UHGV virus genome: UHGV-0044052
Direction: 5' to 3' (one strand)
From: a virus
Length of the DNA stretch: 11,474 nucleotides
Shown: piece by piece, positions 917-5,767 of the stretch
Layout: every line of letters starts with the position of its first letter
Numbering within the stretch: position 1 is the first letter of the stretch
Translations under genes and position numbers: made by a program
Notes under the pieces: generated by a model
What the model saw: the letters and a program-made list of their open reading frames with translations, nothing else
The model's database searches: none
Told to the model about the DNA's origin: nothing

Positions 917-1101
917 GCTGTTTCCGAAAGAATCAACGGGTTAGGCCTTAATGGGCTGCGTGGTAATTATCAGCATCCAGAATATGACGGGTTATGTTTC
1001 CGACCTCCTCAATTTGAGGTTCCCGAAAATATCAACGGGTTAGGCTGGTTTCCCCGATGTTCGCCGCTGGCGAATTTCGAAAATATCAACCAGTTACCGC
1101 C
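917..1101 (+). repeat. Three imperfect ~25-bp direct repeats (core GAAA(G/A)(A/T)ATCAAC(G/C)(G/A)GTTA(G/C)(G/C)C)
   Basis: Copies at ~917-943 (ttccgaaagaatcaacgggttaggc), ~1019-1047 (tcccgaaaatatcaacgggttaggc) and ~1073-1101 (ttcgaaaatatcaaccagttaccgc). A CCTCAA-t-TTGAGG palindrome lies at ~1007-1019. No convincing ORF covers them. Confidence 0.6.
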
Positions 1102-1408: not shown

Positions 1409-1631
1409 CGGGTCCTTCCTGGAATTATGGACCCGTTACGGGGCGGCGACCTCGCGGTTTTTATCTGTTTATGAAAATTTTTCTGGAAAAAGCATGTCGG
1501 TACTTCTCGAACATAACTATTTGTTTTTAAATAGATACACAATAAAAAGAAACGACACGGTAATCATCTAAAATGGCGATTTATGACGCTTTCATGTCGT
1601 TTCTCAGTTTTGTTCAATAATTGCGCGTCTG
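1409..1631 (+). other. Lambda-type cos site (cos A): cosQ-like, cosN, cosB-like region with R-site-like motifs
   Basis: cgggtccttcctggaattatggacccgttacg | GGGCGGCGACCT (1441-1452) | cgcggtttttatctgtttatgaaaattttt closely matches the lambda cos junction as recalled. Downstream GAAACGACA (1548-1560) and TGTCGTTTCTC (1595-1605) resemble lambda cosB R2/R1 Nu1-binding sites. Confidence 0.8.
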
Positions 1632-2174
1632 TTACTCGCCTTTCTTCTGTAGCAACTTTTCCGGTACGTTTCCGGTTGTTTCTTTCAAGTAATCAGCCAG
1701 TATCTGTGGGAGGTTGTCGGCAACTCTGGCACTGGCATTACAGGCTTTAACCACTTCCCTTTTAAGCCTATCCAGCATGGCGGGGGTAATCTGTGGGAAG
1801 CTCCTTTGCATAGTAAGCGGGAGGCTGTCCATGATTGATGAAATCTGACTCGCCAGCTTTGAAAGCGCGTACAGGCAAAACTCAGTATCAATCACGTCAC
1901 CGCGATCGCGCTCGTTTTTAAGTTCCTGCGCCTCCGCCTGTGCTGTCAGTAATCTGATCCTGACTCGTAAGAGTTCATCATCATCAATATCGCCTTTGTC
2001 GTTTGTAAGCTGGCTAATTGCATTGTTAACCCTATTGTCTATCACGCTGGCAACATCGTAAAACGCCTCACGGCCTTTACGTTCAACGGGAGTCACTCCC
2101 CACTTGTCGAACGCTGTCGCACTTACACGGCAGCTTTTCGCCATGTTTTTTTTGTTCATCAGGTGCGATTTCAT
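1632..2174 (-). CDS. Terminase small subunit, lambda Nu1 family
   Basis: 180-aa product. N-terminus MNKKNMAKSCRVSATAFDKWGVTPV resembles the Nu1 winged-HTH start (VNKKQLADIFGASIRTIQNWQEQGMPV). Central LLTAQAEAQELKNERDRGDVIDTEFCLYALSKLASQISSIMDSLPLTMQRSFP aligns with Nu1 LTRAQADAQELKNARDSAEVVETAFCTFVLSRIAGEIASILDGLPLSVQRRFP. Similar length to Nu1 (181 aa). Comparison is from memory, not a search. Confidence 0.85.
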   Translation of the reverse strand: MKSHLMNKKNMAKSCRVSATAFDKWGVTPVERKGREAFYDVASVIDNRVNNAISQLTNDKGDIDDDELLRVRIRLLTAQAEAQELKNERDRGDVIDTEFCLYALSKLASQISSIMDSLPLTMQRSFPQITPAMLDRLKREVVKACNASARVADNLPQILADYLKETTGNVPEKLLQKKGE

Positions 2175-2350
2175 TAATACACCAACTTAATTACTGCTTC
2201 AGGTTGGTGTATTGTTTGCATCTTTCCCTTTTCATTCATAAAGATAGAGCAAACAACAAAACCACCACCACCCCCCTGAAAAAGCTCATAAATAGCGAAA
2301 AACCGCGAGGTCGCCGCCCCGTAACGGGCCATAATTCCAGGAAGGACCCG
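2175..2350 (-). other. Second cos site (cos B), inverted relative to cos A, directly upstream of the TerS gene
   Basis: Minus strand reads cgggtccttcctggaattatggcccgttacg | GGGCGGCGACCT | cgcggtttttcgctatttatgagc. The cosN complement aggtcgccgccc is at 2308-2319. It forms a ~54-bp near-perfect inverted repeat with 1409-1462 (one indel). The cosB-equivalent region differs from cos A and contains a 9-bp-stem hairpin (tacaccaac / gttggtgta) just before the TerS start. Confidence 0.75.
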
Positions 2351-2376
2351 CAAAAAAGCCGGATTTCTCCGGCCTT
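2350..2376 (-). terminator. Rho-independent terminator after the 137-aa ORF
   Basis: Hairpin GCCGGA-tttc-TCCGGC (2358-2373) followed on the minus strand by a T-run (plus-strand aaaaaa at 2352-2357). Confidence 0.6.
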
Positions 2377-2805: not shown

Positions 2806-3093
2806 TTATCGGGCCAGCGGCTGAACGGATACGCCAGAACCCGCAAAGGCGGCGCATTTTTTCGCATCGGTGTCGACGCTCTCAGGCCAGTTAACGGCGG
2901 CAATATTGAATATCCCCGTCTTGTAACACTGTGCTGATTTCTGCTTTGACGTGTCCACGAGGTACGAAGTCAGATAAACAGCCTTGCCAGATTCCTGACC
3001 ATCCCACGGCTTAAACTCGCCATTGTCCGCCAGCATCAGCGGCAAAATGTACCAGCGTCGTGGATACCTGCTGACTGCCTGCAAATAACTCAA
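2806..3093 (-). CDS. Head decoration protein, lambda gpD-like (start uncertain)
   Basis: LPLMLADNGEFKPWDGQESGKAVYL...YKTGIFNIAAVNWPESVDTDAKKCAAFAGSGVSV aligns with lambda gpD [27 protein letters not shown]...[35 protein letters not shown]. The ORF as drawn starts at a TTG. The only SD-preceded ATG nearby (3109) is in another frame. Confidence 0.7.
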   Translation of the reverse strand: MSYLQAVSRYPRRWYILPLMLADNGEFKPWDGQESGKAVYLTSYLVDTSKQKSAQCYKTGIFNIAAVNWPESVDTDAKKCAAFAGSGVSVQPLAR

Positions 3094-3120
3094 TGTATGG
3101 AGTGTCCATAGAATCCCCCG

Positions 3121-4176
3121 TTAAGCAATTTTGACGGTAACAAATTTGCGAATATCTGCCGGAACCGGCTGCGGTGCGCTGTGCGTCTGCACGTACTCAA
3201 TCGCCGGATCGCCGTCCTCAATCCAGTTTTTCGGGTAGTACATGTTTTGCGTTGCGCCTGTTCTTACCGCTTCCTGATCCATAATCGCACCATAGGCCAC
3301 CAGCCCTTTGTTGTTGGTGTTGCCCAGGACCAGCAAATCAGGATCAAGGAAATATTTTTCTGTGCCGTCGCTGTCAGTGTATTTGCCGGAATAGACGATA
3401 AGGGCAATATCGCCCAGATAGCCTTTAAAGCTCACCACTTCGCCCAGGTTTTTACAGGCCAGCTCTGCGGCGGACTCTGAACCACGGGAAAGATCGTACA
3501 GCTCACGGAATTTTTTAAAGCTGCGTAACGTTCGCCATACCTCAACGCCCATAATCATGACGTTTGCGGGGCAACCAGCCTGATCGGCGTATAGTTCGAT
3601 ATCATAGATTGGATCGTGGGTTTCTTTGTCCTGCTCTGACCATTTTTTCCCGTCGGCCTGCTCTATGATGTTTTTTTCCGGTATCTTCCAGTCGATTTCA
3701 TAGCGCTCTATGCCTTCGCCCTCAATGATGTTTTTTCCGGTCGTTACCGCATTTACCGCCAGCCATTCCACGCGCGCTTTTATGGCGTTTATCTGGCGGC
3801 GCATATTGCCAGTAATCAGGCGCATACGGCGATAGGTAGGGTCGTTAAGCTGTGCCGGATCTTCTCCAGCCATGCGCATGATGGTTTTCGTTGGATCGAT
3901 TTCGTGCTTTGGCTTCATGTAGCCAGGTTTAATCGTGCTGGTTTCGTACCCTTTATCGCGCTGAACCTGGCTACCCACCATAGGCGAACAAAACGCCGAC
4001 ATGGTGACTTCTTCAATGTCCAGGGTATCCAGCATGATGTTTTGCGTGTTGAATGTCGCCACGTTCGGGAAAAACAGCGCGGTAAACAGCGGACTAAATT
4101 TAAATTCCGCAATATCCTCGCGATTCAGGTACGCGAAAAGCTGGTGTGTGTTAAGTGCCATTGCTTTGACTGCCAT
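3121..4176 (-). CDS. Major capsid protein, lambda gpE-like (HK97 fold)
   Basis: 351-aa product with conserved blocks shared with lambda gpE along its length: EFKFSPLFTALFF / KFKFDPLFLRLFF, KPGYMKPKHEIDP / TPGYVKPKHEVNP, DPTYRRMRLI / DPAYRRRRII, GDIALIVYSGKY / GDVAIVVYSGQY, YYPKNWIEDGDPA / RYPKNWVTTGDPA, SAP near the C-terminus. Confidence 0.9.
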   Translation of the reverse strand: MAVKAMALNTHQLFAYLNREDIAEFKFSPLFTALFFPNVATFNTQNIMLDTLDIEEVTMSAFCSPMVGSQVQRDKGYETSTIKPGYMKPKHEIDPTKTIMRMAGEDPAQLNDPTYRRMRLITGNMRRQINAIKARVEWLAVNAVTTGKNIIEGEGIERYEIDWKIPEKNIIEQADGKKWSEQDKETHDPIYDIELYADQAGCPANVMIMGVEVWRTLRSFKKFRELYDLSRGSESAAELACKNLGEVVSFKGYLGDIALIVYSGKYTDSDGTEKYFLDPDLLVLGNTNNKGLVAYGAIMDQEAVRTGATQNMYYPKNWIEDGDPAIEYVQTHSAPQPVPADIRKFVTVKIA

Positions 4177-4382
4177 TATTCACCCCCATGAGTCTGATTT
4201 ATGCCCAGCGCCGCGCGTAAATAGGAGCGTACCTGCCAGCCTGTTGACGGCTCAACCATCGCCAGCGGATCAAGTCCTGCCGCAATGCCTGCTTTTACGT
4301 TCTGCTGGTGGCGTTCCTTGAGCGCCTTCACGATGTCGGGGCTTATGTACACCGAAACACCGCCTTTTTTCTCTTCAGCCAT
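4176..4382 (-). CDS. Hypothetical protein (68 aa), first gene of the late operon
   Basis: ORF with SD AAGAGGA upstream of the ATG at 4382. Its stop overlaps the capsid gene start (TAATG), suggesting translational coupling. No recognisable family. Confidence 0.5.
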   Translation of the reverse strand: MAEEKKGGVSVYISPDIVKALKERHQQNVKAGIAAGLDPLAMVEPSTGWQVRSYLRAALGINQTHGGE

Positions 4383-4417
4383 AGTAAGAAATTCCTCTTT
4401 GACTTAAAAAATCATAA

Positions 4418-4466
4418 CTGGATGTTCATCCAGCTCTGATTATAATCATGATTGCATTTTGTGCAA
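4418..4466 (-). promoter_or_regulatory. Putative late (head operon) promoter with palindromic operator
   Basis: On the minus strand, TTGCAC (plus 4461-4466) - 16 bp - TATAAT (plus 4439-4444), followed by the inverted repeat CTGGATG-nn-CATCCAG (4418-4433) at the predicted transcription start. An ATTGCA-n-TGCAAT palindrome overlaps the -35. Confidence 0.45.
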
Positions 4467-4545
4467 TGATGTTGAGTTGCGTTGCAAATTATGAAATGAT
4501 TATCCCGATCATGTGTGTCAGTGCACCAAAAAGCCTCATATGCAA

Positions 4546-4586
4546 AAGCCCGATAAGCCACCTCTGACCTTATCGGGCTTTTTTAT
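4546..4586. terminator. Strong hairpin, likely insulating terminator between replication and late modules
   Basis: Perfect 11-12-bp stem AAGCCCGATAAG / CTTATCGGGCTT with a T-run (tttttt) on the plus strand and a shorter U-run on the minus strand. Confidence 0.5.
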
Positions 4587-4599
4587 CTGCCTGCAAAGA

Positions 4600-4760
4600 T
4601 GTCGAACGAAAATTAACCACAACCATCATCTTTTTTGCATCAAAACAATTAAAAACAATAAATTACGCTCATGATGATGATGACGATAAAATCACAAAAA
4701 TGCGCTTTTTTCCGCGCCTCCCGCCCCGTGTTCAGGCCCACCCCGCCAGGAGGACCCGTA
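4600..4760 (-). other. Degenerate cos-like relic (third copy)
   Basis: On the minus strand, ...acgggtcctcctggcgggg...acggggcgggaggcgcgg resembles cosQ-cosN but the cosN core is disrupted (GGGGCGG-GAGG-CGCGG versus GGGGCGGCGACCTCGCGG). Downstream, atcgtcatcatcatcatgagcgtaatttattgtttttaattgtttt resembles the lambda cosB I1 region (tcgtcataacttaatgtttttatttaaaat). Confidence 0.5.
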
Positions 4761-4782
4761 AAAAAGCCGGATTGCTCCGGTT
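4758..4782 (-). terminator. Rho-independent terminator after ssb
   Basis: Hairpin GCCGGA-ttgc-TCCGG with a T-run on the minus strand (plus-strand aaaaaa at 4760-4765). About 35 bp here nearly repeat 2337-2376. Confidence 0.55.
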
Positions 4783-4797
4783 TCTGTCACTCGTCGC

Positions 4798-5220
4798 TTA
4801 AAACGGTATGTTATCCCCGTACGGATCATCATTCCCCGCCTGTTGTTTTGCCCTGTTCAGCGCGTCAGTAGCCTGGCCCTGTTGACCTTTTTTGCCGCCC
4901 AGTCGCGCCGTTCGCGCACTGATTACACTGTCTGCGATAACCTGCCAGCCCTGCCGCGTTTCTCCGTTCTGCCCAGTCCACTGGCTGATCTGCATGTTAC
5001 CCGCCACGCTCAGGAGTTCACCCTTGCGGTGCCTTTCCAGTGCTTCGGCCTGTCTGCCAAATGCCAGGACGGATAACCACATCGTCGCCGTTCCGTCATC
5101 TGCCTGGCTGCACGGAAGGGGGACCGCCATACGCGCCAGCGTCATCGGTGTGCCCTTGCTGGTCTGTTTTACCTGCGGGTCGTCCACCAGCCGCCCGTAA
5201 GCGGCTATCTGTGCTGTCAT
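4798..5220 (-). CDS. ssb: Single-stranded DNA-binding protein (SSB)
   Basis: 140-aa product with an OB-fold-like pattern (GRLVDDPQV...TMWLSVLAFGRQAEAL...KGELLSVAGNMQISQWTGQNGETRQGWQVIADSV) comparable to E. coli SSB, a Gly/Gln-rich linker and an acidic C-terminal tail ending DNIPF (SSB ends DDDIPF). SD GAGAGGTGG present. Start overlaps the upstream ORF stop (ATGA). Confidence 0.85.
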   Translation of the reverse strand: MTAQIAAYGRLVDDPQVKQTSKGTPMTLARMAVPLPCSQADDGTATMWLSVLAFGRQAEALERHRKGELLSVAGNMQISQWTGQNGETRQGWQVIADSVISARTARLGGKKGQQGQATDALNRAKQQAGNDDPYGDNIPF

Positions 5221-5542: not shown

Positions 5543-5767
5543 TTGTCTACCTATCTACCTTAGTGGCCCTCATGCCAGTAATGGCGCGGCTTTCAGCGGG
5601 GTAGAGTGCTTTTATCCACTATCTACCCCGTGTCTACCTCCCTGTCTGATTCAGGTAAAATCAGGTAGAGAGGGTAGATAGTGGGTAGACAGTAAAAAAA
5701 GGCTATCTACCTAACTTAATGCACTGAATTAAATGTATTTTTCTTTACTCAGGTAGACAGGGTAGAC
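5543..5767. repeat. Iteron array, putative origin of replication
   Basis: Eleven copies of the 7-8-mer GGTAGA(C/T/G)(A) in both orientations: forward at ~5600, 5664, 5673, 5684, 5752, 5761; reverse (TCTACC) at ~5545, 5553, 5621, 5632, 5705. An AT-rich stretch lies at 5693-5750. Immediately downstream of the primase gene 3' end. Confidence 0.7.

Follow-up and report, generated by a model that had tools for sequence, protein, structure and literature searches.

An island of Escherichia coli carries, between its ssb gene and its capsid operon, a stretch of DNA that looks, to judge from its sequence, like a recently captured, nearly intact copy of a cos site (about 170 bp) and not like a decayed leftover. 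I call it cos3. As far as its motifs can be read, it possesses the complete set: cosQ, cosN, an IHF site and TerS-binding repeats, the last two putative. I propose, with as much doubt as conviction, that cos3 serves as an auxiliary packaging site that extends the range of helper phages. Binding by TerS, binding by IHF, the positions of the nicks and use of the site in the present day are what I infer.

The window, that is, the whole stretch of DNA analysed (11,474 nucleotides), is a phage-inducible chromosomal island (PICI) of the EcCICFT073 family, of the type found in E. coli Nissle 1917 and ATCC 25922. Its 11.5 kb are 100% identical to the island of those two strains, bar one 32-bp deletion and one SNP, and in both strains the island sits between yejO and tRNA-Pro/yejM. 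The minus strand carries every island gene: integrase, HTH regulator, icd-like genes, D5-type primase, ssb, orf68, capsid (lambda gpE family), decoration protein (gpD family), orf137 and small terminase. The backbone synteny of the EcCICFT073 family (int, HTH, icd-like, primase, ssb, orf68, capsid, decoration, orf137, packaging slot) is present, according to the Nissle annotation and to blastn against L008, the CFT073 sequence in which EcCICFT073 is located at 9931-20700. Over most of this backbone the window and EcCICFT073 are 93-95% identical in nucleotide sequence. I found no paper or experiment on this particular island (searched as the Nissle PICI).

The packaging slot is bounded by two other cos sites:

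1409 to 1631 (plus strand): cos1, an inverted site with a lambda-type cosN (1441-1452) and a phage-21-like cosB, forming an inverted repeat with cos2
1632 to 2174 (minus strand): gene for a Nu1-type small terminase, 180 aa (Pfam Phage_Nu1, 2e-23)
2175 to 2376 (minus strand): cos2, directly upstream of the Nu1-like TerS gene, with hairpin, cosQ, lambda-type cosN GGGCGGCGACCT (2319-2308) and an island-specific cosB

The two lambda-type cosN sequences thus lie in inverted orientation, 1441-1452 on the plus strand and 2308-2319 on the minus strand, around the packaging-specificity gene, and the same is seen in L008. Within cos1, the identity to the cos annotated in phage 21 is 90.4% over 1435-1528. 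The second site, cos2, has its homologue in the cos that lies upstream of rppA in EcCICFT073, and it has the same orientation as cos3. The slot that rppA occupies in EcCICFT073 holds the Nu1-type TerS gene here, a full-length homologue that shares 35% identity with lambda Nu1 across 179 aa, and no Rpp protein is present in the window's slot, the Nu1 homologue having no similarity to RppA. The replacement of Rpp by a Nu1-like TerS suggests an "own TerS" strategy like that of SaPIs. The N-terminal helix-turn-helix of the island protein differs from that of lambda Nu1.

Some features of the island stand apart from its cos sites. At position 3043, within the decoration gene (about 2806-3109, minus strand), 32 bp (GGTAAATTCCTGAATAACGCCAGCATCAGCGG) are missing relative to Nissle 1917 (CP022686), so that the gpD-family gene is frameshifted after about 27 codons and stops at codon 33, whereas the product in Nissle is 111 aa long. 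Close to the island's yejO-side end are three perfect matches to the IHF consensus (WATCAACNNGTTA) within 170 bp (931-943, 1030-1042 and 1084-1096, plus strand), possibly part of an attachment or recombination region. Downstream of the primase gene is an 82-nt palindromic stretch (5615-5696), both strands of which match the Rfam hairpin model mir-135 well below the gathering score. The stretch is a likely candidate for the origin of replication of the island.

Layout of cos3 and its flanking terminators

Read along the minus strand, the order of elements is the ssb stop codon, T1, cosQ, a G-rich spacer, the cosN block, CATC repeats, an IHF-like site, GATG repeats, a distal block and T2:

4760 to 4780 (minus strand): T1, intrinsic terminator after ssb, a hairpin and T-run abutting cosQ (terminator scan; predicted fold -11.6 kcal/mol)
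4585 to 4759 (minus strand): the cos3 cassette, present here and absent from the EcCICFT073-type and O157-type sister islands
4751 to 4757 (minus strand): cosQ heptamer GGGTCCT, an exact match
4702 to 4731 (minus strand): cosN block ACACGGGGCGGGAGGCGCGGAAAAAAGCGC, from alignments with lambda, phage 21, VT1-Sakai, Stx2d_112808 and mEp460
4669 to 4686 (minus strand): R3-like CATC repeats TCGTCATCATCATCATGA, inside a block (4705-4671) that is invariant among phage copies with type-1 cosB
4647 to 4665 (minus strand): putative I1-like IHF site, with AAACAATAAATTA at 4653-4665 (plus strand), one mismatch from WATCAANNNNTTR
4615 to 4636 (minus strand): R2-like repeat GATGATGG, inverted relative to the CATC repeats and partly conserved in phage copies with type-1 cosB
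4595 to 4612 (minus strand): distal conserved block, where the homology to phages ends (alignment with phage copies)
4544 to 4584 (minus strand): T2, a strong hairpin terminator that separates cos3 from the capsid operon (predicted fold -25.6 kcal/mol, z=-3.3)

The sequence-only reading had placed a cos-like segment at 4600-4785. The segment is real, and the actual cassette spans about 4759-4585. Its borders appear in blastn comparison with EcCICFT073, where the hairpin 4780-4757 matches L008 17233-17256 and the match resumes with 4584 onward at L008 17261 onward. Terminators T1 and T2 bracket cos3. The inverted repeat of T2 (4537-4557 / 4569-4589) recurs in EcCICFT073. The one SNP relative to Nissle falls in the T1 stem, at 4781, where the window has T and Nissle and 19 of 20 related island copies have C, at the cost of one base pair in the ssb terminator stem. 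EcCICFT073 has an additional gene between ssb and T1, for a PerC-family transcriptional activator (L008 16960-17208); in the window, T1 and cos3 come directly after ssb.

The cosQ heptamer is the same in lambda, phage 21, cos1, cos2 and all 44 phage-context copies. From it to the predicted nick is 24 nt in cos3 and 23 nt in lambda. By analogy with lambda, cleavage is predicted to leave a 12-nt overhang, GGGCGGGAGGCG, at 4726-4715, the nick positions likewise being carried over from lambda. The CATC repeats at 4669-4686 form a putative TerS-binding site, as their position and their inverted relation to 4615-4636 indicate. Between the CATC and GATG repeats sits, at the level of a motif, the IHF consensus with its single mismatch (4653-4665), a match equal to that at the I1 position of the window's phage-21-like cos1. 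The I1-like block as a whole (4665-4647), which the sequence-only reading had recognized, holds up: it is identical to the I1 region of lambda at 16 of 19 positions. Within the R2-like repeat, AAAAAGATGATG is invariant among phages and several columns of GGTTGTGGTT vary. The phage counterpart of the distal block ends 69 nt upstream of the TerS start codon. The window contains neither a DUF1441 TerS nor a TerL; what comes after cos3 is T2, orf68 and the capsid gene.

A promoter scan of 4150-4900 revealed no sigma-70-like promoter, and Rfam no RNA family in the cos3 segment. Between T2 and orf68 (4439-4506, minus strand) there is TTGCAC-16 nt-TATAAT set within TGCAAT/ATTGCA palindromes, missed by the scan because its -35 hexamer fits at only 3 of 6 positions. 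The region also occurs in EcCICFT073 (96.6% identity over window 4584-4150) and is a candidate for the regulated promoter and operator of the capsid operon. In the stretch made up of the cosQ-cosN spacer and the left half of cosN (4712-4745, minus strand) there are four G-tracts, GGGG-T-GGG-CCTGAACAC-GGGG-C-GGG, that fit a G-quadruplex motif and are kept in phage copies.

Relation to lambda cos and to the probable cos region of Stx phages

How does cos3 relate to the lambda-type sites of the same island? The sequence-only reading saw a cosQ-like block and a repeat of about 35 bp next to the terminator, and both are borne out. The heptamer GGGTCCT is exact at 4757-4751 on the minus strand, and 4780-4746 matches the hairpin and cosQ of cos2 at 33 of 36 positions (z=16 against shuffles), a repeat search reporting the same likeness as 93% over 30 nt (4751-4780 vs 2343-2372). 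A third cos-like site does exist in the island, and it shares with cos2 the junction of hairpin and cosQ. The alignment of cos3 with 2175-2376 and 1409-1631 that the earlier reading called for is significant over hairpin and cosQ and over nothing beyond (z 0.6-1.6). Past those two elements the comparison with lambda gives z=3.0, not significant in local alignment against shuffles, and no significant alignment to cos3 was obtained with the cosB of lambda, phage 21, cos1 or cos2 (z 0.6-3.0). The lambda cosN, GGGCGGCGACCT, is not matched by GGGCGGGAGGCG of cos3, the common part being the left half, ACGGGGCGG. With significant likeness confined to the terminator hairpin and cosQ, the resemblance to a lambda-type cos nearly fails by the refuting condition that the sequence-only reading had itself set. 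A diverged lambda-type cos was considered as a description of the site and dropped, since hairpin and cosQ alone align significantly with cos1 and cos2.

The close relatives of cos3 are found in other phages. The segment 4750-4595 is identical to the Rz-TerS intergenic region of Stx2d_112808 at 144 of 159 positions (z=89), and it is because of this match that cos3 can be identified as a cos. By megablast, the identity is 87-91% to nine phage records, VT1-Sakai and eight Stx2a- or Stx2d-converting phages. In all of these the matched region lies between Rz and the small terminase gene, the position of cos in lambda, and the elements come in the same order. The VT1-Sakai/Stx2-type phages encode a TerS of the DUF1441 family and a gpA-like TerL with a GpA_nuclease domain. 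That their Rz-TerS region is a working cos is inferred from its position and its lambda-like order of motifs. A search for a paper or record giving the cos ends of these phages found none, and a search of the literature for the cosN sequence strings turned up nothing relevant. Phage records that begin at cos might have disclosed the nick position. Only mEp460_4F5 begins nearby, 4 nt before GGGG, and its start is unreliable because of that offset and of a cosN 3 nt shorter than that of the mEp460 reference. Scans of GTDB species representatives gave either no matches or mere chance matches in unrelated taxa.

What is to be made of the cosN core, which the sequence-only reading took to be disrupted? 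The claim does not survive the comparison with the right phages. The overhang sequence GGGCGGGAGGCG is a single central base (A4719) away from GGGCGGGCGGCG, the commonest cosN of VT1-Sakai/Stx2-type phages, a separate lambdoid lineage. A first IMG/VR sample was anchored on cosQ and the left part of cosN and was for that reason blind to variation in cosQ; sampling was repeated with patterns anchored in cosN, in cosB and in ssb, the cosB anchor leaving cosQ and cosN free to vary. Among the 44 phage-context copies the cosN centre is C, CG, TC or AC, with 1 nt more or less, and cosQ is invariant. An A at 4719 is absent from about 70 close phage copies. A more distant viable phage, mEp460, does have A at the aligned position. 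Given that A and the natural variability of the centre, the core is that of another type of cos and not a disrupted lambda core.

The type of cosB covaries in phages with the allele of TerS (22 of 23 and 20 of 20). This fits the repeats being the recognition elements of TerS; physical linkage alone could yield the same pattern.

Then there is the pattern of substitution. A consensus was drawn from 18 closely related island copies, with two divergent copies left out, and set against a consensus of 71 phage-type copies. The two differ at 17 positions, every one of them in a column that varies among phages and none in the 87 invariant columns (p=4e-8). The consensus shows no decay at or since capture, one of the grounds on which the description of cos3 as a degenerate cos is not supported. 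The window itself has just one change in a phage-invariant column, C4608. The phage copies are uniformly T at this point, and of the 18 closely related island copies 7 have the same C as the window.

Origin and possible present use of cos3

In EcCICFT073 nothing but GCGCCC separates T1 from T2, and contig L138, which has the 3' end of the window's ssb, likewise lacks cos3 and joins the two terminators. The contiguous junction is present in about 380 O157-type and 30 CFT073-type genomes and the cos3 site in about 169 of 5426 complete genomes. From the direct junction in sister islands it follows that cos3 is a presence/absence cassette, of about 175 bp. It entered the EcCICFT073-family PICI by recombination between the ssb terminator and the capsid-operon terminator, probably by way of the hairpin and cosQ junction common to cos2.

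The sequence-only reading told a different story, in which a lambdoid head region shrank by deletion to the head module and left a degenerate lambda-type cos behind. There is something to be said for this story: the capsid and decoration proteins are of the gpE and gpD families of lambda, the small terminase is Nu1-like, and cos3 does contain cosQ and an I1-like motif. It is hard, though, to see a relic in a noncoding segment about 90% identical to the cos of extant Stx phages when the capsid protein is at most 47% identical to that of any phage. The two must be of very different ages. Sister islands with a clean junction lack cos3 altogether, the differences from phages are restricted to variable positions, and beyond hairpin and cosQ there is no significant likeness to lambda, phage 21, cos1 or cos2. 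The deletion story is contradicted by the ages, by the sister islands and by where the differences fall, and I regard an ancestral relic as barely credible.

A captured site need not be a used one. It may be that cos3 was captured intact, or spread by recombination at hairpin and cosQ, and is now an unused passenger too young to have decayed, which is a tentative but real possibility and the strongest of the rival readings. Selection to keep cos3 appears weak. A point in favour of use is the low diversity of cos3 among islands (pi 0.025), 2-7 fold below that of its flanks (terminators, intergenic DNA, orf68 and third codon positions of ssb, pi 0.06-0.17), yet recent spread, or service as a recombination linker between mosaic modules, could explain this as well. 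Polymorphisms within islands are spread like neutral changes, 7 in columns invariant among phages and 8 in variable ones, the neutral ratio (p=0.4). Of 20 island copies, 4 carry a changed cosQ heptamer (GGGTTCT twice, GGGGCCT once and, in a divergent copy, GTAGGTACT), and such mutants are confined to island copies, there being none in 44 confirmed phage-context copies and none in 9 classified sites of the second island family described below. Co-resident prophages of the cos3 type are not enriched: in about 14 of the 16 island-bearing genomes sampled, cos3 is not accompanied by another site of its type, and phages of the type occur mostly in STEC, whose own islands are without cos3. About 410 related islands, moreover, do without the site. 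Against all this, the window's copy keeps every phage-invariant position except 4608. The site recurs in those 169 or so complete genomes on islands that differ in their alleles of ssb and orf68 and whose packaging slot holds RppA in some cases and a Nu1-like TerS in others. In another island family, finally, a second type of cosB stands at this position, and this implies that acquisition or conversion took place repeatedly.

That second family (L031 1289-5428, also L020, L056, L074, L079, L013, L018, L030 and L081) has the same ssb and T1 and a different late module: a 629-aa fusion of ClpP protease and capsid, a phage-like Stx-type cos, orf93 and a 370-aa protein consisting of the gpA endonuclease domain only. 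The 370-aa protein is identical to the C-terminal part of phage TerL at 71% (L031, L026) or 99% (L013, L018, L030, L081, L083). Each island of the family has two Stx-type cos sites, in the same orientation and some 2.54 kb from each other, and the DNA examined contains no lambda-type cosN. The cos next to the packaging genes is always phage-like, and with such a cos upstream of those genes islands of this group do depend on this class of terminase.

One could also suppose that cos3 is bound by terminase or IHF and not cut, the altered centre of cosN blocking the nick, so that the site interferes by titrating helper terminase, avoids mixed ends of cos2 and cos3, or plays an architectural part between the two terminators upstream of the capsid operon. 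An A-type centre is carried by 22 of the 24 island copies next to ssb and by none of the close phage copies (the exact A-type cosN in 17 island contexts and no phage context), the blocks for binding are intact, and the terminators on both sides insulate cos3. The centre, however, varies in sequence and in length among bona fide phages, and a change there need therefore not block cutting; cosQ, dispensable for mere binding, is nonetheless intact in most copies; and the segment contains no match to a promoter. I think a site of this sort improbable.

Packaging ends were looked for and none found. Three contigs end close to cosN (L091, L192 and L199, at 4732, 4737 and 4741, 5-14 nt upstream of the predicted nick), and I reject these as packaging ends: they do not agree in position, one runs into a Nextera adapter, and some loci are split (L159 abuts L091). 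A break of assembly in the G-rich DNA is as likely a source.

An auxiliary packaging site, the reading I lean to, would work as follows. A helper phage with a DUF1441 TerS and a gpA-like TerL grows where the island replicates. The phage's own TerS would bind the CATC/GATG repeats, helped by bending through IHF, and TerL would nick the adjacent cosN. Concatemers of the island would then be packaged toward the capsid operon, co-directionally with cos2, and when the head has filled, packaging would end at a subsequent cos3, in the way proposed for EcCICFT073 multimers (PMC6092414). No specificity factor encoded by the island would be required at cos3. The site would thereby add a third class of helper to those served by cos2 (through the island's Nu1-like TerS) and by cos1 (through its phage-21-type cosB). 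There is precedent in EcCICFT073, which has two functional cos sites (PMC6092414, PMC6739421). Loss of the second, however, raised transfer (PMC6092414), and extra cos sites are therefore not automatically beneficial.

A bolder version of the auxiliary site, one I think unlikely, makes the island a satellite with several adapters: three cosB specificities (for its own Nu1-like TerS, for phage 21 and for Stx/Sp15) and an A4719 selected for distinct cohesive ends. If it were true, the island could be packaged by three classes of terminase, the ends from cos3 would be unable to anneal with those from cos2 or with helper genomes, and an island of Nissle-type commensals would be mobilisable by incoming Stx-type phages and would compete with them.

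That satellites carry helper cos sites, even two per island, is established, and the PICIs of E. coli are known to spread by way of such sites, which helper terminases accept. No paper on a third cos site, of a different cos lineage, in the EcCICFT073 family came up when the literature was searched for PICI cos sites with Stx helpers and for the Nissle PICI. If the site is used, its derivation from the lineage that includes Shiga-toxin phages would mean that a satellite widens its helper range by collecting small cassettes of packaging signals. It would predict that the islands of commensal and probiotic strains (Nissle 1917, ATCC 25922) could be mobilised by, or compete with, Stx-type phages, which bears on gene flow between STEC and commensals. 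If it is not used, cos3 is still a dated case of recent exchange of DNA between phage and satellite at cos. Either way there is a caution here: difference from lambda alone is no ground for calling a cos degenerate.

Comparison with known systems

The nearest relative, EcCICFT073, the model PICI of Gram-negative bacteria, is reported to have cos sites with lambda-like cosQ and cosN and a nonphage cosB, and an RppA that retargets the helper's TerS (Fillol-Salom et al. 2018, PMC6092414; 2019, PMC6739421). Like the window, it has two inverted lambda-cosN sites flanking the slot for rpp or terS, and the principle is shared, a satellite being packaged through cos sites that a helper terminase recognizes. 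Unlike the window, it has those two cos sites only, and at the position of cos3 its T1 and T2 are directly joined, after the perC gene. Whereas those sites have an Rpp-specific cosB, cos3 has the helper's own cosB and a different cosN.

The best match to cos3 itself is the cos region of VT1-Sakai (Sp15) and of the Stx2a and Stx2d phages (AP000400, LC567830 and others), alike at 87-91% over about 170 bp, with cosQ, the flanks of cosN, the invariant block, the CATC/GATG repeats and the IHF-like site in the same order. What surrounds the sites differs. In the phages, cos is followed by the genes for DUF1441 TerS and gpA-like TerL, and cos3 by a terminator and the capsid operon; upstream of cosQ the phages have a TGATAAnnATTATCA palindrome where cos3 has the GC-rich terminator hairpin. 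The centre of cosN is most commonly C in the phages and A in cos3.

With lambda, cos3 has in common the cosQ heptamer, the left half of cosN (ACGGGGCGG), the overall order and orientation of elements, and an IHF-like site between oppositely oriented repeats. The right half of cosN differs, the R boxes of lambda are absent from cos3, and the distance from cosN to I1 is about 17 nt shorter in cos3.

Then there are the SaPIs of cos type. SaPIbov5 and SaPIbov4 carry the cos of their helper, and SaPIbov4 is said to have two putative sites (cited in PMC6092414). The likeness to cos3 lies in a satellite's having a copy of the helper cos, so that an unmodified helper terminase packages it. The host and the phage lineage are different, however, as are the terminases, which in the case of the SaPIs are HNH-dependent, and in the window's island the copy of the helper cos is one of three sites of different specificity.
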